The notes: generated by a model from the letters alone, not told the origin. Positions 32,117-60,814 are shown, counted from the first letter of the stretch. The stretch is 64,000 nucleotides of DNA from a bacterium (GCA_017744355.1 JAGIBK010000005.1:260790-324789), one strand, 5' to 3'. Made by a program: numbers and translations.

Positions 32117-32127
32117 AGGAGAAGCCC

Positions 32128-32846: not shown

Positions 32847-32964
32847 ATAGAGTGACGGCGGGGCGTTCTTGTAATAAAAGCGACATAACCCGGGTAATTT
32901 CATGATGGCCCTTGCTTGTTTCGATCACATCGATTGAGCGGTGTCCATGCCGTGGAGAGCCTAC

Positions 32965-34635: not shown

Positions 34636-34650
34636 CGGAGGAAAGAAGAC

Positions 34651-37989: not shown

Positions 37990-38007
37990 TCGCGAGGGGA
38001 GGAACGA

Positions 38008-38955
38008 ATGATGATGAGGTCCAAGATGCGCCTGCGCCACCTGCTACTCGCCGCCCTCTCGGTTTCCTTGGTCGGATGCCAGGGGCTTTCCGGTGTGCTC
38101 TCCCCGAGCACTGGCGGCGGCATGAGTGCGGTGCAGGCACAGACCGGCGGCCTGACGGTCCGACTCGGCAACGCGGCGCTCGCCTACAAGGCGCAGCAAC
38201 TGACGGACTTCCCGTTGGAAGAGGTGGAGGTCCTGGTGACGGTGGAGAGCCCGGACGCGCAGGATCCCGCCGTGCGTCGCCAAGAACGAACGGTCAGGCT
38301 CGGCCAGGTGATCGAGTTCGCCCAGGTTCCTGCCGGGTACGTGGACGTGACGGCCATCGCCTTATACAAGGGGCAGGTCTTCGACCGGCAATACACCAGT
38401 GCGGCGATCATGCCCGGTGGCTCGGAGACCGTCACGCTCGAACTGAATGTGGGCGCGAGCGCGCTGGATCTCGACTTCGGGTCCGCGCTGCCCGTTCGCC
38501 GTATGGACGTTCGCGACCTGCCGGAGTTCGCGGCCTACCAGCTGCCTTCGGGCGCCGAGAGCATCGACTTCGATCTGGTGGATGCCAGCGGAGCGACCGA
38601 ATCGATTTCGTTCCGCCATGCCGACGGCTGGCTCTATCGCAAGCTCGGCCTTGAGCCCTGGCCCGAGGCGAGTGAGTGGTGGCGCTTCTCGTTCGGCTGG
38701 GGCGCCCTCACGACCCTGCCCGCGCATGCGACCATCGTCGGGGCGGAGGCGCCCTGGAACGGCTGGGCCGGAACGGTGAAGCGCTTCCAGTGGGAGAACG
38801 TCTACGTCACCAATCGCAACGGGAGCACGCAGGACGTCACCTATCGCTTCGACCGCTGGTACTCGCCCACCGAGGGCCTGCTGCGCGAGGACGTCCACGA
38901 GGCGAGCGGCTCGCAGCCTATCCTGGTGACCCGCATGATCCGGAAGGGGCTTTGA
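38008..38955 (+). CDS. lipoprotein B4 of duplicated module (short form)
   Basis: RBS GGGGAGG; lipobox LVGC; FDRWYSPTEGLLRE block. Confidence 0.7.
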   Translation: MMMRSKMRLRHLLLAALSVSLVGCQGLSGVLSPSTGGGMSAVQAQTGGLTVRLGNAALAYKAQQLTDFPLEEVEVLVTVESPDAQDPAVRRQERTVRLGQVIEFAQVPAGYVDVTAIALYKGQVFDRQYTSAAIMPGGSETVTLELNVGASALDLDFGSALPVRRMDVRDLPEFAAYQLPSGAESIDFDLVDASGATESISFRHADGWLYRKLGLEPWPEASEWWRFSFGWGALTTLPAHATIVGAEAPWNGWAGTVKRFQWENVYVTNRNGSTQDVTYRFDRWYSPTEGLLREDVHEASGSQPILVTRMIRKGL

Positions 38956-38957
38956 GC

Positions 38958-39518
38958 ATGAGCGTCACGAACAAGACTTTCGCCCTCCTGGGCGCCTGCG
39001 GCGCCGTGGCCGCGCTCTTGATAGCGGGGTGCGCGTCGTTCCCCGCGGCGGGGGCCGGTACCCCCGCGGGCCAGATCGCCGAGGCCCCGAAGGCCTCGCT
39101 CTCGCTGCGCGTGCGTCTGCCGAGGACGGTCCAGGTGGTGAGGAGCGAGATCACCGGCGCGACGATCAGCGTCACGATCGACGGCGAGGCGCCGATCCAG
39201 GTGCCTGTCGCCCTGTCATCCAGCGACGGCAACGTACGCCTGCCTGTGCCGGATAGGGACCTGGGGGAAGCCGAGGCGTTCTCGCTCGAGGATCTACCCC
39301 AGGGGGATGCGGTCGTGAGGCTGGACCTCTACCGAGGAACCGAGATCGTCGGCACCGGGGAGGCCCTGGTGCCGCTCATCCGGGGATACCGCTCGGCCGC
39401 TTTCATTCAGATTTACCTGGACAGCCGCGGCAAGACCGATATGAAGCCCCTGGCACCCTTGCCGGGCGCCACCGTCAGGCCCGAGAACCCGCCGTCGGAT
39501 CTCTACCCGCCTGCTTAG
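38958..39518 (+). CDS. lipoprotein B5 of duplicated module
   Basis: Lipobox IAGC; LSLRVRLPRTVQVV N-domain; LIRGYRSAAFIQIYLDSRGKTD block. Confidence 0.7.
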   Translation: MSVTNKTFALLGACGAVAALLIAGCASFPAAGAGTPAGQIAEAPKASLSLRVRLPRTVQVVRSEITGATISVTIDGEAPIQVPVALSSSDGNVRLPVPDRDLGEAEAFSLEDLPQGDAVVRLDLYRGTEIVGTGEALVPLIRGYRSAAFIQIYLDSRGKTDMKPLAPLPGATVRPENPPSDLYPPA

Positions 39519-39524
39519 CCGTCA

Positions 39525-39552
39525 GCCGCCCCGCTCCGAAGAGCGGGGCGGC
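39525..39552. terminator. perfect 12-bp stem hairpin between convergent genes
   Basis: GCCGCCCCGCTC cgaa GAGCGGGGCGGC. Confidence 0.55.
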
Positions 39553-39557
39553 GTCGT

Positions 39558-47600: not shown

Positions 47601-47637
47601 GCCCCGGGAAGCGCAAGCTTCCCGGGGCTTTGCTTTG
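47601..47637 (+). terminator. rho-independent terminator after leuS
   Basis: GCCCCGGGAAGC gca AGCTTCCCGGGGC followed by TTTGCTTTG. Confidence 0.8.
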
Positions 47638-47754
47638 GGGCAATAGGCCTTCGTTTGTCATCGTCTGAAAGTGCCAACGCGGCGCCCTCGCTCCACAATC
47701 GGGGGTTGATCGCCGGCTCGCATGCCGCCCGGTCGAGCGAGAGGATTGAGGACG

Positions 47755-50700
47755 ATGCGCAAGATATTGGTTGCCGTGCTGTTGAGCTTGACGCTGGTGG
47801 GCTGTCGCATGCCGTCGCTCTTCGCGACGAGCCCCGGCGCCTACTTCGGCGCCGCTTCGGATGCCGGCGGGGCGCGGGTGCAGGAAGCCCCCCCGCTGAG
47901 CGGTCGGGTGCTCATCCCGCGGCGGGTACAGGCGACCATCAAGGACGACGTGGCGGTGGCTGCGACCGTGTCCTTGATCAACACGGGCAGCAATCGGACC
48001 GAGGCGACGGGCGTGACCGATGACCACGGCGTCTTCACCCTGACCCTGCCCAAGAACTATCGCCCCGATCCCAAGAGCACCTACTACCTGGAGGCGGTGA
48101 AGGGCCTGCACGAGAACAGGCCGGGCCACGCCGTGGCGCGGGTGCGGACCATCGTCAAGTTCCTGAACGGCTGGGTGTCGCTGACCAACACGACGCCAAA
48201 CCAGGGCATCAACATCACCTCGCTGACCACGGCGGTGGCGATCGGGGCGGGCCTGCGCAAGGGCACGGCCTCGAAAGTGGACTTCGACGCCCTGATCGGC
48301 AAGATCGCAGGCGGCGTCTACACCCCGGTGACGAACCTCTCCCTTGCCGAGGTGACCGCCCTGACGTCGTTGGTCACTTCGAAGCTCGCGGACGATCGGG
48401 ATCCGGTGGGGGCCATCACCCTCGACACGGGCACCAACGGCTTCGAACTCGCCTCCCCCGAATCTCCTCAGGTGAGCACCGCGAGCGTGGCGGTGGCGCA
48501 GGTGGGCGGGACGCTCACCCTGACGGGCTCGGGCTTCAGCACGACGCCCGCGAACAACGTGGTCACCATCAACGGGACGCCCGTGACGGTGCTGTCGGCC
48601 ACCATGACCAGCCTCACGATTCAGATTCCCGAGGGGGCCACCTCGGGCCAGATCACGGTCCAGGTGGGCGGCCTCATCATCCTGGGACCCGTGTTGTCGG
48701 TGGCGGTGGAGGTCGAGACGTTCAGCGCGCCGTCGGGTGCTTCCGGCACGACGCTCACCCTCACGGGCTCGGGCTTCGACCCGTCGGATCTCGCCAACAA
48801 CGTGGTGGTCTTTAGCGGCGGGGCGACCGCGAGCGTCACGGCCGCCACCGCGACGAGCCTCACGGTGACGGTGCCCTCGGGGGCGGTGAGCGGGCCGGTG
48901 AGCATCAACGTGCTCGGGAGTCAGACCACCAGCGAGATCACGTTCATCGTCCCGGTGGTGATCTCGGACTTCAGCCCTGCGGGCGGCGTTGCGGGCACGT
49001 CGGTGACCCTCTCGGGCACGGGCTTCTCCACCACGCTTGCAAGCAACTCGGTGAAGGTGAACGGCGTCGCGGCGACTCTGACCCAGGCGAGCGCGACCAG
49101 CCTTCGCTTCACGGTGCCGCTTGGCGCGACCACCGGCCCCATCGCCGTGACGGTCGCGGGCCAGACGGCTTCCACCGCAGCCTTCACGGTCGCCATGCCT
49201 TCCCTCGCCGGAGCTTCCACCATCCAGACCATTGCCGGATGGCCCCTTCCGCCTGCGAACCGACAGGCGAGCAACTGGGGCTTCAAGGCCCCCGCGGCGA
49301 TGGTCCGCGATGGCGCCGGCAACACCTACGTCGCGGGGAGCGGCCGGATCTTCAAGATCGATGCCGCGGGCGTCATCACCCACGTGGCGGGGATGGGCGC
49401 CACCAACGCCCACGACGGCGATGGTGGGCCGGCAACCGGGGCCAAGTTCAGCGACAAGGTCTACGCGCTCGCGGTGGACGCCTCGGGCAACCTCTATTTC
49501 GCGGACAGCGCGTACAATTGCGTCCGCATGGTGGATACCTCGGGCGTCATCTCGACGGTCGTGGGGGTTTCCAGCACGAGCTACAGCGCCCCGGACGGTG
49601 ACGGCGGTCTTGCCGTCGCGGCCCGTCTCGACCAGCCGCAGGGACTTGCGGTGGACGCTGCGGGCAACCTGTACATTTCGGAATTCACCGGCCATGTGAT
49701 CCGCAAGGTCGCGGCCTCCTCGAAGATGATTAGCACCATCGCCGGCAACCGTACGGTCTTCGGCTATTCGGATGGGGCCGGGGTCGCAAAGGATGCGCGT
49801 TTCAGCAGCACCCGCGGCTTGCTGCTCGACGGTGACAACCTGTACGTGGCGGATTCCTATCGCGTCTGGCGCATCGGGCTCTCGGGCAACACCATCGAGA
49901 ACCTCGCCGGGGCGGGGGCGGGCGACGAAAGCGCTTACGTGGACGGCCCCGGGGCCAGCGCCCGCTTCAAGGATTGTGTCAGCCTCGCGAAGGACGCCGC
50001 GGGGAATCTGTACGTCGGCGATCAGGGCGACCACCGCGTGCGCAAGATCGATGCCTCGCGCAACGTCACGACGGTCGCAGGGACCGGTGTCGCCGGCTAC
50101 GGGGGGGATGGCGGCGTGGCGACCTCGGCCCAGCTCAACGTGCCGTACGGTGTCGTCGTGGATGGCGCCGGCCGCCTCTATGTCGCGGATTCCTTGAACC
50201 ATCGCATCCGCCGGATCGAGGGGGGCACCATCTCGACGGTCTGGGGCACCGGTCTGGTCAGCTACTCCGGGGATAACGGTCTTGCCGAGGCGGCCCAGGT
50301 CGACCCGGGGGTCAACGGGGGCGTCGCCGTGGATTCGGCGGGCAACCTCTATCTTGCGGATCAGAACAACTATCGCATCCGCAAGATCGATCGGGTGACG
50401 GGCGTCATCTCGACCTACGCCGGGACGGGAGCGGTTTCGAGCAGCGGCGATGGGGGGCAAGCTACCGCCGCAAGCCTACAGCCCTCGGGGCTTGTTTTCG
50501 ACGCCTCGGACAACCTCTACGTCGGTGACGTCAAGGGGGCCAGCATTCGCAAGATCGCGCGCGCGACGGGCCTCATCTCGACCTACGCGCCGGGCATGGC
50601 GTATCCCCGGGGCCTCGCCTTCGATGCTGCGGGCAACCTTTACGTCGCCAGGGGAAGCGCCCTCCCCGGCAGCTCCGGCACCGTCGTGAAGATCGACCCC

Positions 50701-51186
50701 TTGGGCACCGTCACCACCATCGCGGGCGGGGGAGTCTCACTCGCCGAGGGCGTTTCCGCCACCTCGGCCAGGATCAACGGCCCCATGGGGCTGGTGCTGG
50801 ATGCGAGCGGGAGCGTCTACGTCGCGGACTACGGCAGCCACAAGGTCCGCAAGGTGAGCGAGGGCGTCATCACCACCGTGGCCGGGGCTGGGGCCGGTGG
50901 CGACGGAGGTCCGGCGCTCACGGCGAAGCTCACGAACCCGTACGGGCTCGCCATGGACGCCTCCGGCACCCTCTACATTTCCGAGTACGGCGCTCACCGT
51001 ATCCGCAAGGTGGATCTCGCGGGGGACATCTCGCTCGTGGCGGGGACGACCCAGGGCTTCTCGGGGGATAACGGCCAGGCCGCCTCGGCCCAGCTCTCCA
51101 ATCCAACCAGCCTCACTCTCGCCGATTTCGGGGGCACGCTCTACGTCAACGACAGCACGAACCTCCGCGTGCGCAGGCTGCGGTGA
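47755..51186 (+). CDS. giant surface lipoprotein: 4 IPT/TIG domains + NHL-repeat beta-propeller region
   Basis: Lipobox LVGC; four IPT-like units (..TLTGSGFS..NNVVTINGTPVTV..); many NHL-type repeats (LYVADS.NHRIR(K/R)I.). Confidence 0.85.
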   Translation: MRKILVAVLLSLTLVGCRMPSLFATSPGAYFGAASDAGGARVQEAPPLSGRVLIPRRVQATIKDDVAVAATVSLINTGSNRTEATGVTDDHGVFTLTLPKNYRPDPKSTYYLEAVKGLHENRPGHAVARVRTIVKFLNGWVSLTNTTPNQGINITSLTTAVAIGAGLRKGTASKVDFDALIGKIAGGVYTPVTNLSLAEVTALTSLVTSKLADDRDPVGAITLDTGTNGFELASPESPQVSTASVAVAQVGGTLTLTGSGFSTTPANNVVTINGTPVTVLSATMTSLTIQIPEGATSGQITVQVGGLIILGPVLSVAVEVETFSAPSGASGTTLTLTGSGFDPSDLANNVVVFSGGATASVTAATATSLTVTVPSGAVSGPVSINVLGSQTTSEITFIVPVVISDFSPAGGVAGTSVTLSGTGFSTTLASNSVKVNGVAATLTQASATSLRFTVPLGATTGPIAVTVAGQTASTAAFTVAMPSLAGASTIQTIAGWPLPPANRQASNWGFKAPAAMVRDGAGNTYVAGSGRIFKIDAAGVITHVAGMGATNAHDGDGGPATGAKFSDKVYALAVDASGNLYFADSAYNCVRMVDTSGVISTVVGVSSTSYSAPDGDGGLAVAARLDQPQGLAVDAAGNLYISEFTGHVIRKVAASSKMISTIAGNRTVFGYSDGAGVAKDARFSSTRGLLLDGDNLYVADSYRVWRIGLSGNTIENLAGAGAGDESAYVDGPGASARFKDCVSLAKDAAGNLYVGDQGDHRVRKIDASRNVTTVAGTGVAGYGGDGGVATSAQLNVPYGVVVDGAGRLYVADSLNHRIRRIEGGTISTVWGTGLVSYSGDNGLAEAAQVDPGVNGGVAVDSAGNLYLADQNNYRIRKIDRVTGVISTYAGTGAVSSSGDGGQATAASLQPSGLVFDASDNLYVGDVKGASIRKIARATGLISTYAPGMAYPRGLAFDAAGNLYVARGSALPGSSGTVVKIDPLGTVTTIAGGGVSLAEGVSATSARINGPMGLVLDASGSVYVADYGSHKVRKVSEGVITTVAGAGAGGDGGPALTAKLTNPYGLAMDASGTLYISEYGAHRIRKVDLAGDISLVAGTTQGFSGDNGQAASAQLSNPTSLTLADFGGTLYVNDSTNLRVRRLR

Positions 51187-51206
51187 GGACCATGAAGGGA
51201 ACGATC

Positions 51207-51770
51207 ATGAGGAGCCGGGCAGGGTATCTCGGGGGGCTGGGGCTTTGCGCTCTCCTGTTGCTGGTGGGCTGCCCCGGGCCCGAGGACGAGGACATCATCG
51301 GAACGGTGGGGCCGAAGCCCACCGAGACCGCGGACAAGAACGTCGGCGGCTCGGTCGGAGATGAAACCCCACCCGCCACCCGATCCGCCACCCCGGAGCC
51401 GGTCACTCGGACCCCCTCCCCCAAGCCGACCGCCTCGGCCAAGGTGGGCATCAAGTCGGTGAGCGTCTCGAACATCGCGATCGCCCTCTACCCGCCCGCC
51501 CAGGACGAGGCGCTCGGGCTCGGCTACCCGAGCTGGAGGCAGCTCTCGGGCCAGGCCATGCGCACCGATGACTTCCCCTCGGGCGTGGTCTGGAGCGATC
51601 GCTCCGGTGGGCAGCTCGTCGTGAGCCCCACCGGTCGGATCGAGACCAAGGCTTCGACCCAGCCCGGAACGTACTGGGTGCGCTGCGCGGCCCTTGACGA
51701 CGTCAACGTCTACCAGGACGTGGCGGTCGAGGTCCGTCCGACCAGCGAGCTCGAGGTCATCATCCGTTGA
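51207..51770 (+). CDS. small lipoprotein, hypothetical
   Basis: RBS AAGGGAA; signal peptide with lipobox LLVGC; Pro/Thr-rich linker. Confidence 0.6.
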   Translation: MRSRAGYLGGLGLCALLLLVGCPGPEDEDIIGTVGPKPTETADKNVGGSVGDETPPATRSATPEPVTRTPSPKPTASAKVGIKSVSVSNIAIALYPPAQDEALGLGYPSWRQLSGQAMRTDDFPSGVVWSDRSGGQLVVSPTGRIETKASTQPGTYWVRCAALDDVNVYQDVAVEVRPTSELEVIIR

Positions 51771-51781
51771 AGGGGCATGCC

Positions 51782-52744
51782 ATGAAACGTCTTCTCGCCT
51801 TTGGAATCCCTCTGAGCCTCTTGCTCGTGGCCTGCCGCGCGCAGGGGCCTCTCGGCACCCCCGCCGAGCGTACCGGGGTCGCCGAGCCCGCTCGCGCGAC
51901 CCTGCAGGTGGGGCTCCAGTGGCCCCGCCGCGAGACCCAGGTCATTCCGATCAGCGCCGACACCATCTGGGTATCCGTCAAGAAGGGCTCTCAGACCCTC
52001 CACACCACCGCCTTGAAGCGGCCCGATGCCCAGGGGACCCAGACGGCCACCCGGAGCTTCCAGGTGGATGCCGGCACGGGCCTGAGCGTCCGGGCCGAGG
52101 CCTTCCGCGCGGGCCAGGCTTCGACCAGCATCCCGATCGCCCTGGCCCAGGCGACGGGCGTGACCCTGTACGCCAACCAGCGCACCATCGTCACCCTGGA
52201 TATGGCGGCGACGGGCGCCTCGACGATCTCGAGCTTCTCTCCGACCAACGGCGGGCCCGGGGTGAAGGTGAGCGTGGCGGGTCAGTTCAGCCCGAGCGGT
52301 TACTATCGCCTGGTCCTGGGACCGGCCGAAAGCGCCGCGACCTACAAAACGAGTCAGCTCCTGGAGGCCCCCGTGCCCCTCGGCGCGCAGAGCGGCCCCT
52401 TGACCGTCTACGACGATGGTTTCCCGTCGGTTTCAGCACAATCCTTCCAGGTGCTGTCGGTCTTGACCCTCTTGCCGGCGGGGCCGCAGCACGTGTCCCC
52501 GGGACAGCCTCTCGCTTTCAGCGTGCCGAGCGCCCTCGATACAAACGGCCAGCAGGTGAGTTCGCCGACCGTCACGGGCTGGCTCCTCCTGGACCCCATC
52601 TCCTTCGAGCCGAGCGCCATCGGAACCCTGGACGTTAGCGGCGGAGCCGCGACCTTCAACGCAAGCCCCACCGCCACGGGCACCGCTTGGCTTTACGTCC
52701 GCTCGGGCAGCCTCCTCGCCACCACCTCGGTGACGGTGCGGTAG
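51782..52744 (+). CDS. lipoprotein with 'WP..Q(A/V)IP' N-domain plus IPT-like domain
   Basis: RBS GAAGGGG; lipobox LLVAC; LQVGLQWPRRETQVIP matches the N-domain of the duplicated-module proteins; IPT-like ISSFSPTNGGPGVKVSVAGQF. Confidence 0.7.
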   Translation: MKRLLAFGIPLSLLLVACRAQGPLGTPAERTGVAEPARATLQVGLQWPRRETQVIPISADTIWVSVKKGSQTLHTTALKRPDAQGTQTATRSFQVDAGTGLSVRAEAFRAGQASTSIPIALAQATGVTLYANQRTIVTLDMAATGASTISSFSPTNGGPGVKVSVAGQFSPSGYYRLVLGPAESAATYKTSQLLEAPVPLGAQSGPLTVYDDGFPSVSAQSFQVLSVLTLLPAGPQHVSPGQPLAFSVPSALDTNGQQVSSPTVTGWLLLDPISFEPSAIGTLDVSGGAATFNASPTATGTAWLYVRSGSLLATTSVTVR

Positions 52745-52881
52745 TCCCTCAAATAGGCTGTTAGCCAGGCTTTTGGCAGGGTTAGAACGGTGAAAGTCGT
52801 GAGGATGCTGCTATCCTACCCATGCGGGGCTCTGAAGGGAGCCCCCAGTGATGAGGCAGACCTGATCCGAGCGCACCGTGC

Positions 52882-54657
52882 ATGACCACTCGTATCGATG
52901 ACCGACAAGGCGCTGAGAGCCTGACGCTGCTTCTCAGCGCCGGGCCGGGTGCGGGCAAGACGTCCCTCCTGAAGCGTTGGCTGGCCGAGTGGGGCCCTCG
53001 GGCGCGCTACTTCAAGCTGACGACGGGCCTGGGCGCGCCGCTTCAAGAGGCCTTGCCCGGTCTCTTTCCCGAGGCGCGCGCGGTCTTCGAGACGTTCTCG
53101 AAGCGCTTCGAGGGCCTCAACTGGGGCGCGGCCCTGGGCTTGGCCCTCGAAGAGGCCTTGCCCGATGCGGCGCTGCTGCTCGACGATCTTCATTTGGCCG
53201 AGGAGGGGCCCGACTGGGAGGCCCTGATGGCCCTGTGCCGCCACTTTCCGCCGTACGGGCGCCTTGGGTTGGCTTCACGGCATCACCTCCCTGCCATCGG
53301 CCGCGACGAGGAGCGCTCGTGGGATGCGGATCATCCCGACTGGGCCGAGCGTCCTACCCTGCAAGATTTGAACCGGCTGCCCGAGCGCCTCGTCGCCAAG
53401 GCCCTGGCCCTGCACCTCCTCGATGCCCTGCCTGCAAGCGCCGAGAGCTTCGAGTTGGTGCGGCGGAACGTCGCGCGGCCCGCGCTTGATGGGCGGCATG
53501 CCCTGCGGGTCGCCTGGGGCCCCGTCGCCGAGGAGGCCTTTTCCATCCTCGAGCGCCCAAACGTCTGGCGCATGCTGGCCGAGGAGCTGTGGGAGCAGTA
53601 TGGCCTGGGCGTTCGAACGCCGGACGAGGCGCGCGTTCGAGCGGCTTGCTCGCGGCTTCCCGCCAAGGCGCGGGAGGTGCTCGAGGAGCGCTGGCGCCCC
53701 GAGCCGCTGCCCGAGGCGCCTGCGGCCTTGCGGGCTTTGCTGGCGTGCCCCGTCCTGGAGGACCGCCTGGCGTCTCACCGCCATTTCCGGGCCCTCTCGC
53801 ACCTTCACGCGTCCGCCTGCGCGGAAGGCGACGCGCAGGAGGCCGTGGCGCTCGCGGATCGCCTGGTGGCCCTGAGCACCCGCATGGGCTTTTCGCAGGA
53901 CCTGCTTGCGGCCCACGTGGCGCGCCTGGATGCGCGCATGCTCTCGGTCGTCCCGGCCGGGATCGCGCCCTTCCTCGCGATCCCGGCTGAGGCTTTCGCC
54001 ATGGCGGAAAGCCTGGCGGATTACCTGCGCTGCCTGCGGGATCGCGCTCACTTGCTCGGAGAGTCGGGCCTGGCCGTGCGCCTAGAGGCGATCGCCGAGC
54101 AGGTGCTCGGGGTGCGGTTGCCCGCCTCTTCGCGCGAACCGCTCGTCCCCGCCCTGCGCATCCATGCGTTCGGGAAGTTCGCCCTGCTGACGGCCGATGG
54201 TTCGGAGCCGCGCTTTGCTCGGCGAAAGGCCCTGGCCTTCCTGGCGCTGCTCACCCGCCATGCGCGCGGGATGTTCGCCGAGGAGCTGGCGGCGATGCTG
54301 TTCGCCGATGCGGCGGTCTCGAATCCGCAGGAGTCGCTCAACAGTCTCACCTATGCCGTCCGAACCACGCTCAAGGCCATCGGGGCCGAGCAGTTGCTGG
54401 AGTACGAGGGCGGCTGCTATCGCTTGCGCTGGCATGAGGTGGCATTCTGCGACCTGCACGAGGCCGAGGCCTTCAGAGAGCTCGCCCTCGTACTCCAATC
54501 GCGAGGACATGTCGGGCCGGCTGCGCTCATGCGGGCCGTGGCGGACGCTTACGTCGCGGGCGAGCCGTTCGGTGGCTTGGCCGATGCGCTGGGCGCGCGC
54601 TATGGGGGGCTTGTCGCCAGCTTGAGGCTCGGCTTGTCCTCGGAGGAGCGGGCATGA
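52882..54657 (+). CDS. STAND-type P-loop NTPase with C-terminal OmpR-type wHTH + BTAD (inverted-SARP regulator), copy 1
   Basis: Walker A GPGAGKT, Walker B LLLDDLHL; C-terminal KALAFLALL..EELAAMLF..LNSLTYAVRTTLKAIG..YRL wHTH followed by a BTAD-like helix. Confidence 0.8.
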   Translation: MTTRIDDRQGAESLTLLLSAGPGAGKTSLLKRWLAEWGPRARYFKLTTGLGAPLQEALPGLFPEARAVFETFSKRFEGLNWGAALGLALEEALPDAALLLDDLHLAEEGPDWEALMALCRHFPPYGRLGLASRHHLPAIGRDEERSWDADHPDWAERPTLQDLNRLPERLVAKALALHLLDALPASAESFELVRRNVARPALDGRHALRVAWGPVAEEAFSILERPNVWRMLAEELWEQYGLGVRTPDEARVRAACSRLPAKAREVLEERWRPEPLPEAPAALRALLACPVLEDRLASHRHFRALSHLHASACAEGDAQEAVALADRLVALSTRMGFSQDLLAAHVARLDARMLSVVPAGIAPFLAIPAEAFAMAESLADYLRCLRDRAHLLGESGLAVRLEAIAEQVLGVRLPASSREPLVPALRIHAFGKFALLTADGSEPRFARRKALAFLALLTRHARGMFAEELAAMLFADAAVSNPQESLNSLTYAVRTTLKAIGAEQLLEYEGGCYRLRWHEVAFCDLHEAEAFRELALVLQSRGHVGPAALMRAVADAYVAGEPFGGLADALGARYGGLVASLRLGLSSEERA

Positions 54658-57029
54658 GGCGCGACACACGAAGCGGTCCTCCAGAGCCGGGCCAGATGTT
54701 GCTCTTGAGCGCGGGGCCGGGAGCGGGCAAGACGCGGCTGCTTCGCCGCTGGGAGCGCGCGCTCGTCTTGCCCACCCTATACTTGCGCCTCACCCCAGAG
54801 GACCGCGACCCCGCCGTGTTGCGCCATCGCTTGCTCCGTGGCCTGTCTCGGTGCCTGCCGGAATCGTCCTTGGGGCTTTGCGCCGACCTGCCCCTCGGAA
54901 CCACCCTCGCTTCTGCCTTGCCTCCCCTCGCGCTCTTGCTGGACGACTTCCATTTCCTGGCAGGAAGCCAGGCGGAGGGGCAAATGGCCGCCTTTCTCTT
55001 GGGCCTGCCGCAGGGCGCCACCGTCGTGCTGGCTTCTCGCCATCGCTTCGACGATTCGCTCGCGCTCGCGGCCGAAGACGGCGCCCGGGATGACCTGCTC
55101 GATCCCGAGCGGCCTGGGCCGGAGGATCTGGCGACCTTGCCCGACCGCCTACGAGCCTGGGCCTTGGCCCTGGGGCTGGTCGGGGAGGCCTCGTCTTCAC
55201 CCGAGGTGCTGGAGCTCGTGCGGCGCAACGTGGCCGTCGAAACGGCGCCGGATCGCTTCGCGCTTCGGCCTGCCTGGGGGGTGCTTGCGCGCGAGGTGCG
55301 CGTCGCGTTTGCCGATGCGGCCACGTGGGACGCTGTCGTGGCCCTGATCGAGGCTTTCAAGGCCCGTCATCGCTGGACCGATCGCCATGGCGAGATCGCG
55401 TCGCTGGTCGCCCAGGTGCCCGCGATCGTGCGGGCGGAGCGCCCGGAGCTTCTGGCGATCGAGGCGCAGCAGTGGTACGAGGAAGGGGCCCATGCGGAGG
55501 CGCTCGCGTGCTTCGAGCGCGCGCTGGACCTGAACCCCGCCGCCCTGGAACTCGTCGGATGGCGCATCGCGGTGCTTGCGGCCTGCGATCGGGCGACTGC
55601 CTGGGAGGTCTGGCGGGAGCACCGGCACGCGCTGGCGGCTGAGATGCCCACCTGGGCCCTCGCGCTCGAAGCGCAGCTCCAGTGGTACGAGGGGGATTTC
55701 GCGGCCGTCGAAACCACCTTGCGCCGCCTGCTCGAACAGCCGATCGATGGGGATCGCTTCCGGGCGCGTCAGCACCTGATGGCCATGTACTCGCTGTGCG
55801 AGCTGAGCGCGACCCAGTTCGACACCAAGGTGGATCAGGCGTATCTCCAGCGCATGGCGGATCTCTGCGCGCGCTGGAATCTTACCGAGCGGCTTCCTTG
55901 GGTGATCGTGGCGCGCCAAAACGCCGCCCTTCAGGATCTGACGCGTGTTCAGCCACCCGAGTTGCTCGCCGAGGTCTCGAACGCCGTGTGTGCCGGCGCG
56001 CTGCGCACCTGGGTCTTGCGGTACCTGTACAACCTGGCCTGGCAGACCCAGGTGCTGCACGAGCCCGAGCTCGCCCTGAAGCTGTTCCAGCTATGCGAGC
56101 GCCTATCCTTGAACGTCCAGCTGGGGCTCGGTCACATGACCCTGACGATCCGCTGGGCGCAGATTGAGCCGCTGGCGGATCTTGGGCGGATGTGGGAGGC
56201 CAAAGCCCGTCACGACGATTATTTGCGTCATTTTCCGACGGGCCTTCAGCACGACGTGGCGGTGCTACAGTGGGCGAAGATTTGCTTGTCGCGGCGGGAC
56301 CTCGACGGCGCAGGCCGGGCGCTCGCCGCCTGCGCGCCCGCTGCCGCGAAGTTGCGGCGGCGCCATCACCTGTACCAGGAAGCGCTGAGGGCCTACGAAG
56401 GCGACGTCGGCGCCCTGGAGCGAATGGGCGTCTGGCTCGATTCCCCCGAAGGGGAGAGCGTGCGCGGGGGCGAGGTCCGGCTGTTGCAGAGGCTCGGCCT
56501 CGTGAGCGGGCCCGCGCTTTTTCGGCTTTCCGCCTTCGGGGCGCTCCAGCTGGCGCGCGCGGGGCAGAGCACGCAGGGCTGGAGTCGCCGGAAGGCGATG
56601 CACTTGCTTGCCTACCTGGTGCTGCATCCGGCCGGGCTTCCTGCGGCGGAGCTGGCCGAGAAGCTCTTCGAGTCCGATGGGGAGACCACCCCGCTCCAAG
56701 CCCTTCATCAGGCTGCCCATGCCCTGCGTCAGACGCTCAAGGGTATCGGGGGCGATGGCCTCATAGACGCGTCTTCGGGCATCTTCCGGCTCGACTGGGA
56801 GCGGATCGCCTTCTGCGACCTTCGCGAGTTCGATGCGTTCTACCAGCGGGCACGCTCCCTGGAAGGGGACGGCCACCGGGCGATGGCAGCGGTCTTCTAC
56901 CAGGTCGCCCTTTGTTTCGCGCGCGGGGAGCTCTTCGAGAACCTGCCGGAGGACTTCGCCGAGCACCGTGCGGCCTATCGCCGGCGCGTGCGCTACGCGC
57001 AGGCCTTCGCCGAACGGCATGCGCCGTAG
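54654..57029 (+). CDS. STAND-type P-loop NTPase with TPR-like middle and C-terminal wHTH + BTAD, copy 2
   Basis: Overlaps copy 1 by ATGA; GPGAGKT, LLLDDFHF; C-terminal RKAMHLLAYLVL..AELAEKLF..LHQAAHALRQTLKGIG..FRL. Confidence 0.8.
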   Translation: MRRDTRSGPPEPGQMLLLSAGPGAGKTRLLRRWERALVLPTLYLRLTPEDRDPAVLRHRLLRGLSRCLPESSLGLCADLPLGTTLASALPPLALLLDDFHFLAGSQAEGQMAAFLLGLPQGATVVLASRHRFDDSLALAAEDGARDDLLDPERPGPEDLATLPDRLRAWALALGLVGEASSSPEVLELVRRNVAVETAPDRFALRPAWGVLAREVRVAFADAATWDAVVALIEAFKARHRWTDRHGEIASLVAQVPAIVRAERPELLAIEAQQWYEEGAHAEALACFERALDLNPAALELVGWRIAVLAACDRATAWEVWREHRHALAAEMPTWALALEAQLQWYEGDFAAVETTLRRLLEQPIDGDRFRARQHLMAMYSLCELSATQFDTKVDQAYLQRMADLCARWNLTERLPWVIVARQNAALQDLTRVQPPELLAEVSNAVCAGALRTWVLRYLYNLAWQTQVLHEPELALKLFQLCERLSLNVQLGLGHMTLTIRWAQIEPLADLGRMWEAKARHDDYLRHFPTGLQHDVAVLQWAKICLSRRDLDGAGRALAACAPAAAKLRRRHHLYQEALRAYEGDVGALERMGVWLDSPEGESVRGGEVRLLQRLGLVSGPALFRLSAFGALQLARAGQSTQGWSRRKAMHLLAYLVLHPAGLPAAELAEKLFESDGETTPLQALHQAAHALRQTLKGIGGDGLIDASSGIFRLDWERIAFCDLREFDAFYQRARSLEGDGHRAMAAVFYQVALCFARGELFENLPEDFAEHRAAYRRRVRYAQAFAERHAP

Positions 57030-57103
57030 CCCTGGCAATTGCAACCGCTGACAAAGTGCGTCTCGGTGGGGTGAACCATCCCCGAGTCGCTGCGTGACGA
57101 GGT

Positions 57104-57132
57104 TTGACGGCTTCGCGCTCAGCTGTTATCCT
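57104..57132 (+). promoter_or_regulatory. sigma70-like promoter TTGACG-N17-TATCCT driving the SAM riboswitch/metH
   Basis: TTGACG at 57104-57109, TATCCT at 57127-57132, about 25 nt upstream of the riboswitch. Confidence 0.55.
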
Positions 57133-57159: not shown

Positions 57160-57307
57160 TTCACTTATCAAGAGAAGGCGGAGGGACTGGCCCGATGATG
57201 CCCGGCAACCCTTGGGAGACCAAGAAGGTGCCAAATCCTGCAGGGGAAACCCTGGGAGATAAGACGACGTCGACCCTCTCTTGATGCCCAGGAGCGGGTC
57301 TTTTTTT
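57160..57307 (+). promoter_or_regulatory. SAM-I (S-box) riboswitch with intrinsic terminator
   Basis: CUUAUCAAGAGAAGGCGGAGGGACUGGCCCGAUGAUGCCCGGCAACC...GGUGCCAAAUCCUGCAGG...GAGAUAAGA matches the S-box aptamer consensus (P1-P4). Followed by GACCC..GGGUC and U7. Confidence 0.85.
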
Positions 57308-57325
57308 GTGCGAACGGGGAGTTTC

Positions 57326-60300
57326 ATGAGCCGATATCTCGAAGCCTTGCAGCGCCGCATCCTCGTCTACGACGGGGCCATGGGGACCTCTCTCCAGAAC
57401 TTCAACCTCACGGCCGACGACTACGGCGGCAAAGAGGGCTGCAACGAGTACCTGGTGCTGGTGAAGCCCGAGGTGGTCGAGGCGGTGCACGACAGCTTCA
57501 TGGCGGTCGGCTGCGACGTGCTCGAGACCGATACCTTCGGCGGCAACTGGCTCAAGCTCGAGGAGTACGGCCTCGGCGATCGCACCTACGAGCAGAACTA
57601 CCAGGCGGCGCAATTGGCGCGTCGGGTGGCGGACCGTTACAGCACCCCCGAGCATCCTCGCTTCGTCGCAGGCTCGATCGGCCCTACCGGCATGCTGCCC
57701 AGCAGCGACGATCCGGCGCTTGGCAACATCACCTTCGAGCAGCTGGCGGCCATCTTCGAGGAGCAGGCCCAGCCCCTGGTCGAGGGCGGCTGCGACGTGC
57801 TCTTGATCGAGACCTCCCAGGACATCCTGGAGGTGAAGGCCGCGATCGCGGGCATCGAGCGCTACTTCAAGAAATCCGGCAAGCGCGTCGCGCTCCAGGT
57901 CCAGGTCACTCTCGACACCAGCGGCCGTATGCTGCTCGGCACCGACATCGCGGCTGCGATCGCGATCCTCGAGGCCCTGCCCATCGACGTGATCGGCCTC
58001 AACTGCTCCACCGGCCCCGAGCACATGCGCGGGCCCATCGCCATCTTCGCCGAGCGCGCCACCAAGCCCGTCTCGATCATCCCCAACGCGGGCCTGCCCC
58101 TCAACGTGGACGGCAAGGCCGTCTATCCCCTCGAACCCGCCCCCATGGCCGAGGCCCTCAAGACCTTCGTCACCGCGTACGGCGTCAACGTGGTGGGCGG
58201 CTGCTGCGGCACCACCCCCGCGCACCTCAAGGCCATCGTCGAGGCGGTTTCGGGCCTCGAACCCAAGCCCAAGAACCCGGACCGCACCCCGCACGTGGCG
58301 AGCGCCATCCGTGCGACCAGCCTTCACCAGTTGCCCAAGCCCCTCTTGGTCGGTGAGCGGGTCAACGCCCAGGGCAGCCGCAAGCTCAAGCAGTTCCTGT
58401 TGAACGACGACTACGACGGCGTGCTCGAAGTCGCCCGCGAGCAGGTGGAGGGCGGCGCGCACGTCCTCGACGTATGCGTGGCCCTGACCGAGCGCGGCGA
58501 CGAGGCCGAGCAGATGCGCCGCGTCGTCAAGAAGCTCGCCATGGGCATCGAGGCCCCTCTGATGATCGACTCGACCGAGCCTGCGGTCATCGTCGAGGCG
58601 CTCAGGACCAACCCGGGCCGCGCCATCGTCAACTCGGTCCACCTCGAGAACGGTCGGACGCGCATCGACGCCCTGCTGCCCCACGTCCTGGAGCACGGGG
58701 CCGCGGTGGTGGCGCTGACCATCGACGAGGTCGGCATGGCCAAGAGCGCCGAGCGCAAGCTGGAGGTCGCCAAGCGCATCCATTCCATCGTGTGCGGCGA
58801 GTACGGCTTGCCGAACGAGGCCCTCATCTTCGACGACCTGACCTTCACCCTCGCCACCGGCGACGAGGAGTTCAGGGACTCGGCCATGGCGACCATCGAC
58901 GGCATCCGCCTCATCAAGGAGGCCATGCCGGGGGTGCTGACGGTGCTCGGCGTGAGCAACGTCAGCTTCGGCCTCGCGCCTCACGCCCGTGGGGTGCTCA
59001 ACTCGGTCTTCCTGCACCACTGCGTGCAGGCGGGGCTGGATCTGGCCATCGTCAACCCGGCCCACATCACGCCTCTTGCCGAGATTCCCGCCGAGCAGCG
59101 CGAGCTGACCGAGGAGCTGATCTTCAACCGCCAGCCGGACGCCCTGCAGCGCTTCATCGAGTACTTCGAGGCCAACAAGGCGGCTGCCTCGGGCGGCGCC
59201 CAGGCCGAGGACCCCACCGCGGGCATGACCTGCGAAGAGAAGCTCCACTACCAGATCCTCCACCGCAAGAAGGACGGCATCGAGGTGCTCCTGGACGAGG
59301 CCATGCAGGCAAGGAGCCCCGTCGAGGTGCTCAACACGGTCCTGTTGCCCGCCATGAAGGACGTGGGCGACAAGTTCGGCAAGGGCGAGCTGATCCTGCC
59401 CTTCGTGCTGCAGTCCGCCGAGGTCATGAAGAAGGCGGTCGCCCACCTGGAGCAGTTCCTGGAGAAGAAGGAAGGCTACACCAAGGGCAAGGTCGTGCTC
59501 GCCACGGTCTACGGCGACGTCCACGATATCGGTAAGAACCTCGCCAACACCATCCTGACCAACAACGGCTACACGGTCTACGACCTGGGCAAGCAGGTGC
59601 CCATCAACACCATCATCGACAAGGCGATCGAGGTGGGGGCGGACGCCATCGGCCTTTCGGCCCTCTTGGTCTCGACCTCCAAGCAGATGCCCCTGTGCGT
59701 CAACGAGCTGCACAAGCGGGGGCTCAACTTCCCCGTCATGGTGGGCGGGGCGGCCATCAACCGCAGCTTCGGCCGTCGAATCGCGATCGCCGACGACGGC
59801 CAGTTCTACGCGGCGGGCACCTTCTACGCCAACGACGTCTTCGAGGGCCTCTCCATCGTGGACGCCCTGACCGATCCCGAGCGCCGCGACGCCTTCGTTT
59901 CCAAGATGAAGGAGGAGGCCCTCGCTGCTGCCGCCAAGCCCAAGGCGTCAGCCTCAACGGTGGTCGCCCCTGCCGTTCGCTCGGCGGTGCGCACCGACGT
60001 GGCGATCCCCACGGCCCCCTTCTGGGGCCACAAGGTGATCGAGGGCATCCCGCTCGATCGGGTCTACGAGTGCCTGGATCTCAAGAGCCTCTTCCGCCTC
60101 TCGTGGGGCGGCCGCTCCACCAACGGTGAGGAGTGGGTGCGCCTCTTGCGCGAGGAGTTCCACCCGCGCTTGGAGGCCCTCAAGCTGCGCGCCAAGAAGG
60201 AAGGCTTCCTCACCCCCAAGGTGGTCTACGGCTACTACCCCTGCCAGGCGGATGGGGACACCCTCCTCATCTACGACTCGCCCCAAGGTAAGACGGTCCG

Positions 60301-60814
60301 CACGACCTTCTCCTTCCCGCGCCAGCCGGACGGCGAGTACCTGTGCCTCGCCGACTACTTTGCCCCGGTCAGCTCGGGCCGGATGGATGTGGTGGCCTTC
60401 CAGGCCGTGACCATGGGGCCCGGCTCGACCGAGCTGAACGAGGCCTTGCAGGCCAAGGGCGATTACTCGGAGGGCTATTACCTGCACGGCCTCTCGGTGG
60501 AGGCCGCCGAGGCCCTCGCCGAGGTCGCGCACCGCCACATCCGCAAGGAATGGGCCCTCACCGAGGCCCAGGGCAAGCGCTACAGCTGGGGCTACCCCGC
60601 CATCCCCGACCTGGAGGACCACGGCAAGCTCTTCGGCCTGATGCCCATCGCCGAGACCATCGGCATGACGCTGACCGAGTCCTTCCAGCTGGTGCCCGAG
60701 CAGTCGACCGTCGCGGTGGTGCTGCACCACCCGGAGGCCAAGTACTACGCCGTTCGGCCTCAGGCGGGCGAGCGTGTCAGCCCGCACCCGCGCCTCGTCA
60801 AGGAAGGGGTCTAG
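57326..60814 (+). CDS. metH: cobalamin-dependent methionine synthase
   Basis: Hcy-binding, pterin-binding, B12-binding (DVHDIGKN) and activation domains in order; 1162 aa. Confidence 0.95.
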   Translation: MSRYLEALQRRILVYDGAMGTSLQNFNLTADDYGGKEGCNEYLVLVKPEVVEAVHDSFMAVGCDVLETDTFGGNWLKLEEYGLGDRTYEQNYQAAQLARRVADRYSTPEHPRFVAGSIGPTGMLPSSDDPALGNITFEQLAAIFEEQAQPLVEGGCDVLLIETSQDILEVKAAIAGIERYFKKSGKRVALQVQVTLDTSGRMLLGTDIAAAIAILEALPIDVIGLNCSTGPEHMRGPIAIFAERATKPVSIIPNAGLPLNVDGKAVYPLEPAPMAEALKTFVTAYGVNVVGGCCGTTPAHLKAIVEAVSGLEPKPKNPDRTPHVASAIRATSLHQLPKPLLVGERVNAQGSRKLKQFLLNDDYDGVLEVAREQVEGGAHVLDVCVALTERGDEAEQMRRVVKKLAMGIEAPLMIDSTEPAVIVEALRTNPGRAIVNSVHLENGRTRIDALLPHVLEHGAAVVALTIDEVGMAKSAERKLEVAKRIHSIVCGEYGLPNEALIFDDLTFTLATGDEEFRDSAMATIDGIRLIKEAMPGVLTVLGVSNVSFGLAPHARGVLNSVFLHHCVQAGLDLAIVNPAHITPLAEIPAEQRELTEELIFNRQPDALQRFIEYFEANKAAASGGAQAEDPTAGMTCEEKLHYQILHRKKDGIEVLLDEAMQARSPVEVLNTVLLPAMKDVGDKFGKGELILPFVLQSAEVMKKAVAHLEQFLEKKEGYTKGKVVLATVYGDVHDIGKNLANTILTNNGYTVYDLGKQVPINTIIDKAIEVGADAIGLSALLVSTSKQMPLCVNELHKRGLNFPVMVGGAAINRSFGRRIAIADDGQFYAAGTFYANDVFEGLSIVDALTDPERRDAFVSKMKEEALAAAAKPKASASTVVAPAVRSAVRTDVAIPTAPFWGHKVIEGIPLDRVYECLDLKSLFRLSWGGRSTNGEEWVRLLREEFHPRLEALKLRAKKEGFLTPKVVYGYYPCQADGDTLLIYDSPQGKTVRTTFSFPRQPDGEYLCLADYFAPVSSGRMDVVAFQAVTMGPGSTELNEALQAKGDYSEGYYLHGLSVEAAEALAEVAHRHIRKEWALTEAQGKRYSWGYPAIPDLEDHGKLFGLMPIAETIGMTLTESFQLVPEQSTVAVVLHHPEAKYYAVRPQAGERVSPHPRLVKEGV

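Follow-up and report, generated by a model that had tools for sequence, protein, structure and literature searches.

SARPs carry their SARP domain at the N terminus in every recognised class, whether small, medium, large or SARP-LAL (PMC10972967, PMC12224297, PMC11301090). Their binding sites, located in the -35 region or close to it, are heptameric direct repeats with a 10-11-bp period (PMC10972967). The original prediction described two tandem STAND-type NTPases in which this order is reversed, with a winged helix and a BTAD at the C terminus, and called the arrangement an inverted SARP architecture. Its premise that classical SARP/AfsR regulators have the DNA-binding module at the N terminus agrees with the SARP literature (PMC10972967, PMC12224297), and a C-terminal SARP order was absent from the SARP literature that we searched. 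The order is reversed relative to the described SARP classes but is not rare, because the same order with a full BTAD is frequent among uncharacterised database proteins of ~1000 aa.

The window, by which we mean the whole 64-kb stretch of DNA analysed, comes from an uncultured MAG. Two ORFs were found exactly where two overlapping paralogous genes had been predicted:

52882..54657, + strand, gene A (NCBI J7643_14375, "hypothetical protein"), the short paralog of 591 aa, ORF
54654..57029, + strand, gene B (J7643_14380), the long paralog of 791 aa, ORF

The overlap is the ATGA at 54654-54657, in which B starts on the stop codon of A, and a GGAGGAG Shine-Dalgarno sequence for gene B lies at 54642-54648. 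In-frame GC3 of the two genes is 0.83-0.84 (0.84 for A), like that of real genes nearby. A and B are paralogs: their N-termini share 39% identity over 212 aa (E 8e-17) and their C-termini 41% over 145 aa (E 3e-25). AF2 models were obtained with a pLDDT of 89.4 and a pTM of 0.79 for A, and a pLDDT of 80.9 for B.

A and B belong to a compact half-BTAD subfamily of 42 clusters from an uncultured lineage, most members of which are solo genes encoding ~800 aa, and neither falls in a characterised family with known targets. An A-type gene directly followed by a B-type gene, with an overlap or a gap of no more than 5 nt, is found in the window and in loci L002/L007, L003 and L004/L005; the A+B pair is co-inherited in four lineages. 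Every A ortholog (42-69% identity) has a B-type gene immediately behind it, and B orthologs share 64% (L002), 43% (L003) and 33% (L004) identity. In the tree, the A clade and the B clade are each monophyletic, and their branching is congruent.

The N-terminal P-loop NTPase and the helical or TPR-like middle region of the original prediction are borne out in both proteins by intact motifs, AF2 models and Foldseek searches:

52915..53550, + strand, predicted NOD of A, nucleotide-binding domain plus winged-helix domain (motifs, Foldseek, weak NCBIfam match to the MalT N-terminal family)
52939-52962, 53173-53187 and 53272-53283, + strand, Walker A, Walker B and ASRH motifs of A
53557..54111, + strand, short all-helical sensor region of A, ~9 helices (AF2 secondary structure; gaps aligned to B)
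54687..55298, + strand, predicted NOD of B (AAA_22 at 5e-5, below the Pfam threshold; AF2; Foldseek)
54711-54734, 54933-54947 and 55032-55043, + strand, Walker A, Walker B and ASRH motifs of B
55317..56495, + strand, long TPR-like sensor of B, ~22 helices (AF2; Pfam TPR_2/TPR_1 below threshold; TPR superhelix by Foldseek)

Walker A reads AGPGAGKT at residues 20-27 of A as of B and fits [AG]xxxxGK[ST]. Walker B, LLLDD (98-102 in A, 94-98 in B), and ASRH (131-134 in A, 127-130 in B) are located on predicted beta strands. All three motifs are kept family-wide, Walker A in nearly all full-length members, and S128/R129 of ASRH are invariant among 28 family members, of which 17 matched TPR Pfam families. 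The ASRH arginine is the putative sensor 1 of a STAND NTPase. The sensor of A is ~200 aa shorter than that of B according to the alignment gaps. The first Foldseek match of the A model was MalT (8bob_C, E 9.4e-5, 370 columns), followed by AfsR and EmbR, and the B model matched the same three (MalT again as 8bob_C) plus the STAND-TPR protein 6mfv. The closest NTPase-only relatives are LAL/MalT regulators of ~870 aa with a LuxR HTH. Pfam WHD_MalT and TPR_MalT were not detected in A or B. It is more accurate to describe the NTPase as MalT/LAL-like than as the NB-ARC type of large SARPs that the original prediction had expected.

The C-terminal module spans residues 423-587 of 591 in A and 621-789 of 791 in B:

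54148..54450, + strand, OmpR/SARP-type wHTH of A (profile against PDB, Foldseek, helix motif in orthologs)
54220-54231, + strand, RRKA at the start of alpha1 of A
54337-54375, + strand, recognition helix of A, LNSLTYAVRTTLK
54451..54642, + strand, BTAD-like three-helix extension of A, about the first half of a BTAD (the profile match runs on into the EmbR/AfsR BTAD)
56514..57020, + strand, C-terminal module of B (profile, Foldseek), comprising the wHTH at 56514-56816 with recognition helix LHQAAHALRQTLK at 56703-56741 and three BTAD-like helices at 56817-57020

A profile of this module matched EmbR (2fez) at 1.8e-5 and AfsR at 1.3e-3, and the PhoB family only at 0.2; its positions 12-149 align to EmbR 18-156, covering the wHTH and the start of the BTAD. 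Foldseek superimposed A and B on AfsR and EmbR over 167-175 columns with an rmsd of 3.0-4.7 Å and 20-25% identity. For A, AfsR (8hvr_I) gave 170 columns at 25% identity and EmbR 172 columns at 3.5 Å, and for B, AfsR gave 175 columns at 3.6 Å and EmbR 168 columns at 3.0 Å. The basic residues of RRKA and an invariant recognition-helix arginine are kept family-wide, as in SARPs, when compared with the DNA contacts of AfsR (PMC11301090). The xTYAxR motif of the A recognition helix is conserved in all A orthologs, and the B helix differs by lineage. Profile, structure prediction and fold search agree on a C-terminal wHTH of the OmpR type that is extended by a BTAD-like part, as predicted, and the C-terminal strings quoted in support are present. 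Single-sequence Pfam searches reported neither Trans_reg_C nor BTAD for A or B; both proteins remain below every Pfam threshold, and among 28 family members BTAD was weakly matched in eight and Trans_reg_C in three. No GerE/LuxR-type HTH was matched in A or B (Pfam, NCBIfam) or in family members.

A complete BTAD behind the wHTH is absent from A and B, as judged from the AF2 models and the length after the module. Behind the wHTH there are only three helices (~65-70 aa), roughly half of the domain counted from its start, and a median of 7 aa remains after the module in the A/B family versus 97 aa in full-BTAD relatives. As the missing half includes the equivalents of AfsR alpha9-alpha10, activation may proceed in another way, or the proteins could repress. 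Because the NTPase is MalT/LAL-like, a MalT chassis that carries a SARP DNA-binding module describes the proteins better than the label "inverted SARP"; in addition, the order is not unique and the BTAD is only about half present.

The genes upstream of A, the leader of A and a repeated element provide candidates for what the pair might control:

47601-47628, strong terminator separating the putative target operon from leuS
47654..47676, + strand, left copy of the candidate operator, TTTGTCATCGTCTGAAAGTGCCA, a direct repeat of 10-nt period that starts ~65 nt before the IPT/NHL start codon
47722..52744, + strand, putative target operon (Pfam): IPT/TIG+NHL lipoprotein gene (47722-51186), then the genes of two small proteins without a Pfam match (51183-51770 and 51767-52744), with overlapping starts and stops
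52781..52845, + strand, leader of A (alignment with L002 and L007): degenerate half-sites GTTAGA-N4-TGAAAG at 52781-52796, TATCCTACCC at 52812-52821 and a hairpin at 52826-52845
57033..57055, - strand, right copy of the candidate operator, TTTGTCAGCGGTTGCAATTGCCA when read on this strand, directly beyond the B stop codon

Residues ~12-337 of the NHL lipoprotein in the window are homologous to proteins encoded beside distant family members in L034, L036, L037 and L008 (E 1e-13 to 6e-33), and family members repeatedly adjoin lipoprotein genes sharing this N-terminal domain. No NHL-type neighbour was present in the 6 kb of L003, nor on the short contigs of L001, L032 and L038. The pattern TGTCAKNNKYTG occurs twice in the window, once at each border of the island, against 0.63 expected for the whole 64 kb. 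Overall, eight of nine matches are intergenic and beside A or NHL-type genes of paired loci, and ~280 kb of other loci contain one; the pattern was set after viewing the data, and only four sites are independent (window 57042, L002 and two in L008). The left copy is conserved in L007, the right copy has an L002 counterpart in the same position and strand, and in L003, L005 and L008 the promoters of A or of NHL-type genes carry related copies. Two L008 genes with the shared N-terminal domain each have a near-identical 17-mer upstream, and the same 17-mer precedes A-B in L005. These 10-nt-period direct repeats at the relevant promoters are candidate sites of mixed orientation: they run with the downstream gene in the window, L007, L003 and L005 and against it in L008; the right copy in the window is 3' of B, without an obvious target. 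The first half-site is kept across lineages and the second is lineage-variable. In the leader of A, TATCCTACCC and the hairpin are conserved. The comparison of neighbours and the candidate element suggests that A and B may control the adjacent surface-lipoprotein genes, which lends comparative support to the predicted switch for these genes, whereas the proposed link to the duplicated module at 25-39 kb comes down to one degenerate half-site pair.

We lean slightly towards the interpretation that A and B form a pair of STAND-switched activators of the adjacent surface-protein genes, built on the MalT/LAL plan of N-terminal NOD, helical/TPR sensor and C-terminal DNA-binding domain, with the LuxR-type HTH of E. 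coli MalT replaced by a SARP-type module. By analogy with MalT (PMC4381067, PMC10427625), the STAND-TPR protein PH0952 (PMC6468293) and AfsR (PMC11301090), the resting NOD would hold ADP and be autoinhibited by the sensor, and a ligand or partner on the TPR sensor would permit ATP binding and multimerisation. Within the multimer, the winged helices at the C-termini could then be arrayed head-to-tail along an operator of direct repeats with the consensus TTGTCAG-N3-TTTGnnnG and a 10-nt period, where the half-BTAD and wHTH would touch RNA polymerase and activate transcription. The pair would probably act on the neighbouring IPT/NHL lipoprotein operon and on its own genes, A-B. A heteromer, in which A would occupy the conserved half-site and B the lineage-variable one, with B contributing the large sensor, is plausible, if on balance doubtful. 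It is hinted at because the A helix and the first half-site are conserved, and the B helix and the second half-site vary by lineage; its basis is only co-inheritance, translational coupling and this three-lineage correlation.

An alternative explanation, possible but rather unlikely in our estimation, is that A and B are independent homo-oligomeric regulators from an old tandem duplication, each with its own signal and promoters, their pairing reflecting operonic co-expression. NTPase motifs and DNA-binding modules are complete in each protein, the predominantly solo family members evidently work alone, and the unlike recognition helices are also compatible with separate targets. Tandem LAL regulators are known in Streptomyces gene clusters, e.g. 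NysRI-RIII. However, adjacency and translational coupling have survived divergence to 33-42% identity, the trees of A and B are congruent, A has lost ~200 aa of sensor, and the half-sites are unlike, with a conservation that mirrors the A and B helices.

Less probable again is that TTGTCAG-N3-TTTG is not the A/B operator but a promoter or -35-like element, the site of another factor or an island boundary repeat, A and B regulating other genes. The 10-nt direct-repeat geometry suits tandem OmpR/SARP winged helices (PMC10972967, PMC11301090), which speaks against this explanation; the pattern's post hoc definition and its inconsistent orientation relative to genes count in its favour. TTGTCA does look like a -35 hexamer; however, no -10 element lies 16-18 nt from it. 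The window copies are inverted and flank exactly the five-gene island between leuS and metH, as boundary repeats might, but the island lacks a transposase or integrase and is kept in L006 without the right-hand copy, and the two direct copies between genes in L008 and the single copies upstream of A in L003 and L005 are unlike terminal inverted repeats.

It is very improbable that A and B are other STAND NTPases, such as an Avs-like anti-phage sensor, with a degenerate protein-interaction or effector domain at the C-terminus: defence in bacteria often involves STAND NTPases with TPR sensors, the BTAD is shortened and single-sequence Pfam was silent on the module, but no PADLOC defence model matched at E<=0.01, no nuclease, protease or other effector domain was found by Pfam or in the AF2 models, the neighbours are surface lipoproteins rather than defence genes, the closest structures are the transcription factors MalT, AfsR and EmbR, and the basic residues of alpha1 and the recognition helix are conserved as in SARPs.

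Returning to the favoured activator pair, the MalT and LAL (large ATP-binding LuxR-family) regulators have the order of N-terminal P-loop NOD, helical/TPR-like sensor and C-terminal DNA-binding domain that is also predicted for A and B, and MalT 8bob_C is the best structural match of A and is also matched by B. A switch by ADP/ATP and inducer with multimerisation on repeated sites (PMC4381067, PMC10427625) is presumed for A and B. Unlike MalT/LAL, which are about 900 aa long and carry a LuxR/GerE HTH, A and B have 591 and 791 aa, an OmpR/SARP winged helix with half a BTAD, and form a conserved heterotypic pair. The large SARP AfsR and the SARP-LAL hybrids PimR, SanG and FilR likewise combine a homologous SARP-type wHTH+BTAD with a STAND NTPase and a TPR/helical sensor, and the 10-11-bp period of SARP direct repeats (PMC10972967) matches the geometry of the candidate operator. 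In A and B, however, the module is at the extreme C-terminus instead of the N-terminus, the half BTAD lacks counterparts of helices alpha9-alpha10, which contact sigma R4, and the NTPase resembles that of MalT instead of being NB-ARC. The two genes also come from outside the actinomycetes and adjoin surface-lipoprotein genes instead of biosynthetic clusters.

Proteins of ~1000-1230 aa with the order P-loop, WHD_MalT, TPR, wHTH and full BTAD (e.g. P0105, P0054, P0157 and the 1065-aa gene in L036) are arranged as A and B are, and no paper describing them was found in our literature search. The C-terminal profile matches them next best, at E 1e-16 to 1e-11, an N-terminal Walker A of the form AGPGxGKT is present in many of them, and one shares a genome region with an A/B family member; they differ in a full, Pfam-recognised BTAD of 146 residues and are 200-450 aa longer. 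JGI labels one such protein "LuxR family maltose regulon positive regulatory protein". EmbR of Mycobacterium tuberculosis is the best profile match (2fez; Foldseek rmsd 3.0-3.5 Å over ~170 columns) but combines an N-terminal DNA-binding module and a complete BTAD with an FHA domain, without an NTPase, and is controlled by Ser/Thr phosphorylation. A and B are an uncharacterised variant of known regulator types, not a new kind of system.

Among bacterial STAND transcription factors, SARPs and MalT/LAL proteins have been studied best, and the two groups are regarded as architecturally distinct. The two genes analysed here, A and B, belong to an island of five genes located between leuS and metH, with the following features.

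47601-47628: strong terminator of leuS
47654-47676 (+): left copy of the candidate operator
47722-51186: lipoprotein with IPT/TIG and NHL repeats (Pfam), 1154 aa
After the lipoprotein gene: two genes for Pfam-less proteins (195 and 325 aa); stops and starts overlap within this three-gene operon
52826-52845: hairpin in the leader of gene A
52882-54657 (+): gene A, 591 aa
54654-57029 (+): gene B, 791 aa
57033-57055 (-): right copy of the candidate operator
57104-57132: promoter-like TTGACG-17-TATCCT, 5' of the riboswitch
57162-57265 (+): SAM-I riboswitch (RF00162, 85.8 bits), ahead of metH
57281-60814: metH

As originally predicted, A and B are same-strand open reading frames with exactly these boundaries, the ATG start of B overlapping the TGA stop of A, and they are paralogous, sharing 39% identity over 212 aa in the N-terminal region (BLASTP, E 8e-17) and 41% over 145 aa in the C-terminal region (E 3e-25). 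The similarity is concentrated at both termini, and B carries about 200 extra residues in its middle. The in-frame GC3 of both genes (0.83-0.84, in a sequence of 67% GC) equals that of the neighbouring bona fide genes, and a Shine-Dalgarno sequence, GGAGGAG, precedes the ATG of B by 5 nt. In the interval separating A from the lipoprotein genes, no sigma-70 promoter or intrinsic terminator was detected. The leader of A (52812-52845; 2470-2500 in the related locus L002; also found in L007) contains a conserved TATCCTACCC block followed by the hairpin GGGGCTC-TGAAGG-GAGCCCC, whose pairing is kept in L002 through changed bases and which has no T-run on its 3' side. Downstream, the SAM-I riboswitch with its own promoter-like element indicates that the metH transcription unit is separate from gene B.

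The AlphaFold2 models of A (pLDDT 89.4, pTM 0.79) and B (pLDDT 80.9) consist of the same five units from the N to the C terminus: a compact alpha/beta NTPase domain, a small helix-helix-helix-hairpin of winged-helix-like appearance, an all-helical repeat region (about nine helices in A and 22 in B), a beta-hairpin/three-helix/wing unit and three terminal helices. Both proteins have the Walker A motif AGPGAGKT, the Walker B motif LLLDD and ASRH on the next strand, in agreement with the N-terminal P-loop NTPase that had been predicted, and the repeat region of the models agrees with the predicted helical or TPR-like middle. The conservation of these motifs in essentially all full-length relatives argues for a working nucleotide switch.

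The C-terminal domain could be recognised only with a family profile, as single-sequence Pfam and NCBIfam searches of A and B gave sub-threshold matches to AAA_22, TPR and MalT and none to Trans_reg_C or BTAD. A profile of the last ~173 residues of eight family members, searched against PDB sequences, matched EmbR (E 1.8e-5), AfsR (E 1.3e-3) and a PhoB-family protein (E 0.2), and the EmbR and AfsR alignments span the wHTH and extend into the start of the BTAD. Foldseek aligned each model with the AfsR/EmbR SARP domains over 167-175 columns (rmsd 3.0-4.7 Å, 20-25% identity), and among 28 family members the Pfam BTAD model was reached by eight and Trans_reg_C by three. These results identify the C-terminal domain as a genuine SARP-type wHTH. 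The predicted wHTH thus stands, but the BTAD predicted to follow it is cut to about its first half. Between the profile and the C terminus lie a median of 7 residues, compared with ~97 in full-BTAD relatives. In the AfsR complex, BTAD helix alpha6 contacts the beta flap, and alpha9-alpha10 contact sigma region 4 (PMC11301090). Mapped through the alignment, the equivalent of alpha6 may be retained in A and B, and those of alpha9-alpha10 appear to be absent.

A reading of the pair as a defence (anti-phage) system was rejected, as no anti-phage model matches A or B. The best overall Foldseek match of A is MalT (8bob_C, 370 columns). A metagenome scan seeded on the family Walker A peptide retrieved mostly ~870-aa proteins matching residues 15-129 only, at ~32% identity; these NTPase-only relatives end in a canonical LuxR HTH, which marks them as LAL/MalT-type regulators. 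Together with the structural match and the weak NCBIfam match to MalT, these relatives indicate that the chassis of A and B is MalT/LAL-like.

The extent of the family emerged from an exhaustive HMMER search with the C-terminal profile; a word-indexed homolog search found only 3-4 relatives for each query, a 28-sequence profile included, and a genome scan with the eight-sequence alignment found only one syntenic MAG. At E<=1e-30, the family of A and B comprises 42 cluster representatives of ~800 aa or ~560-600 aa that end in the module. Among the next 105 HMMER matches, the module is N-terminal in only 13 and preceded by at least 450 residues in 37, 19 of which have an N-terminal AGPGxGKT-type P-loop. 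Pfam searches of nine such matches gave AAA_16/AAA_22/NPHP3_N, then TPR/TPR_MalT, then a full C-terminal BTAD. WHD_MalT is present as well in a related protein of 1058 aa, which carries the JGI name 'LuxR family maltose regulon positive regulatory protein'. The order implied by the term 'inverted SARP', with the NTPase first and the SARP module last, is therefore common and widespread but uncharacterised, and A and B are a compact, divergent, half-BTAD offshoot of this class. The earlier interpretation is essentially right, and its novelty is smaller than the term suggests.

Several members of the family probably coexist in single genomes. The metagenomic sample ERR14173585 yields loci L001, L002 and L037, and SRR22388128 yields L003 and L032, in each case a paired locus with one or two solo members, that is, members without a partner gene. 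In locus L036, a 1065-aa gene (18728-21925, minus strand) encoding AAA_22, WHD_MalT, TPR and a full BTAD lies 6 kb from the solo member P0160, so that members of the compact half-BTAD family and of the larger full-BTAD class occur together in one genome. The lineage of the family is uncultured and high-GC. The records of the relatives in L006, L007 and L034 describe them as MAGs of Leptolyngbyaceae cyanobacteria (Stenomitos sp. SMAG_U16504; Pantanalinema sp. GCA_036704125.1). Their GC content is 66-69%, FixS/cbb3-type and chemotaxis genes lie nearby, and they may have been misbinned or given a wrong taxonomic label.

In four lineages, a B-type gene follows directly on an A-type gene, with an overlap or a gap of at most 5 nt. 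Identity to the window's proteins falls from 68% (A) and 64-66% (B) in L002/L007 to ~50% and 43% in L003, and 42% and 33% in L004/L005. In a rough neighbour-joining tree without support values, the A-types and the B-types each form one clade with identical branching order, and the numerous solo ~800-aa members form a separate radiation. From the congruence of the two clades, the duplication is old and was followed by joint inheritance. The recognition helix is conserved in A-types (xTYAxR) and lineage-specific in B-types (HQAAHALR, HIVANALR, HSLLTSAR).

The A-B pair follows the three-gene operon directly, confirming its predicted position downstream of the IPT/NHL lipoprotein cluster. L007/L006 and L002 are too closely related for their synteny to be informative. 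Among more distant members, the solo regulators P0016, P0160 and P0015 (~30% identity to B) are each transcribed divergently from an operon that encodes TIG-, Big_2-, NHL- or Pfam-less proteins. By tblastn, residues ~12-337 of the NHL lipoprotein are homologous to several solo-member neighbours (E 1e-13 to 6e-33) and also match the 1015-aa and 342-aa genes beside the L004-type pair in L008 (E ~1e-19); the 325-aa protein has weak homologs near those distant members too. No NHL-type neighbour was found within the short contigs of L003, L001, L032 and L038. This recurrent association across relatives of ~30% identity is the main support for the proposal that these regulators control surface-protein genes.

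Elsewhere in the window, a four-gene Pfam-less module is duplicated in tandem at 25522-38955, with 35% identity between the genes at 25522 and 32941, 30% for 27111/34651, 29% for 29055/36469 and 28% for 30563/38008. Three of these module proteins have N-termini with weak similarity to the 325-aa protein encoded upstream of A. Upstream of the first module, TGTCGTTTGTTTGTCAC (25430) contains two TGTC half-sites 11 nt apart and resembles the candidate operator. The stretch 38956-39557, intergenic by the GC3 filter, is apparently coding, with an ORF from the ATG at 38958 and a lipoprotein-like signal (…LLIAGC…).

A tandem repeat upstream of A, GGCTGTTAGCCA/GGCTTTTGGCAG, was rejected as an operator because it is not conserved in the counterparts in L002 and L007. 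The candidate operator was formalised post hoc from a comparison of upstream regions, in which a first motif, TGTYAG, by turns overly loose and overly strict, was refined to TGTCAKNNKYTG. This pattern matches the 64-kb window exactly twice (0.63 expected by shuffling), at 47656 (+), ~65 nt upstream of the NHL start, and at 57042 (-), 13 nt past the B stop, so that two ~23-nt copies flank the island in inverted orientation. A scan of all 38 loci gave seven further matches, located as follows.

L007: orthologous to the left copy of the window
L002: immediately beyond the 3' end of B on the minus strand, like the right copy in the window
L003 and L005: upstream of A
L008 (two): 5' intergenic regions of the two genes with the N-terminal domain shared with the NHL lipoprotein
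An unrelated LAL contig (one): counted as background

Both L008 copies are a near-identical 17-mer, TTGTCAGGATTTGTCGG, which also precedes A-B in L005. The sites independent of the pattern definition (57042 in the window, the one in L002 and the two in L008) are all four intergenic, against a chance expectation, scaled from 0.63 per 64 kb to ~109 kb of paired loci, of about one match and fewer than 0.2 intergenic ones. Relative to its presumed targets, the element runs antiparallel in L008 and parallel in the other cases. No target is evident for the copy 3' of B, and a convincing -10 element at a constant distance from the operator candidate was not seen. The solo-type loci lack TGTCAKNNKYTG. 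Between the divergent solo P0015 and its NHL-type operon (L037, 9926-9958), a triple direct repeat of 11-nt period, CTCTACGCCCA/CTCTACGCTCG/CTACACGCTGA (0.02 expected by shuffling), has the classic geometry of SARP sites and a sequence unlike the paired-type element; a repeat of its own is expected if paralogs differ in specificity. A generic scan of 14 upstream regions for 10-12-nt periodic repeats found a ~3-fold excess over mononucleotide shuffles and no common motif, with only the L037 repeat standing out.

The fold and motif assignments, pair co-inheritance, neighbour homology and motif distribution described here are observations; by analogy with the literature on MalT, PH0952 and AfsR (PMC4381067, PMC6468293, PMC10427625, PMC11301090), we infer for A and B a nucleotide switch, multimerisation, binding to DNA, an activating rather than repressing role and the formation of a heteromer. 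They would act as an ADP/ATP- and ligand-gated STAND switch that, once activated, multimerises, setting tandem SARP-type winged helices on direct repeats, and regulates the adjacent lipoprotein genes and its own expression. Across lineages, the first half-site (TTGTCAG) is conserved like the recognition helix of A, and the second (TGAAAG, TGTTAG, TGTCGG) varies like that of B, a parallel across three lineages that would fit an A:B heterodimer on a composite site. We regard as rather improbable the stronger proposal that A and B are an obligate heteromeric sensor/helper, NLR-like transcription-factor pair that reads this composite operator and switches on the surface-lipoprotein family, as a transcriptional counterpart of paired plant NLRs. 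In such a heteromer, the large TPR sensor and a fast-evolving head for reading DNA would come from B, and a conserved head with a minimal sensor from A; an oligomer might bridge the operator copies at both island ends.

The conserved pair would offer a manageable instance of heterotypic STAND cooperation, open to direct study in vitro through the predicted operator and target genes, with no need to culture the organism. It would also give a first functional handle on a Pfam-less surface lipoprotein family of this lineage. What is new is the combination of a MalT-like chassis and, at the C terminus, a SARP module with half a BTAD, in a conserved pair linked to surface lipoproteins. Our literature search found no description of a C-terminal SARP/BTAD order, which, given its partial coverage, is weak negative evidence. 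In the described classes (small, medium, large and SARP-LAL), the SARP domain is always N-terminal (PMC10972967, PMC12224297, PMC11301090), and its C-terminal place in A and B is the reverse, as had been predicted. The NTPase of large SARPs is of the NB-ARC type, whereas that of A and B is MalT/LAL-like. A and B, with the larger set of uncharacterised database proteins, show that the SARP DNA-binding module is widely used also at the C-terminal end of a MalT-like chassis, outside actinomycetes and antibiotic clusters, which bears on how RNA polymerase is engaged by a SARP domain that is tethered by its opposite end and has half a BTAD.
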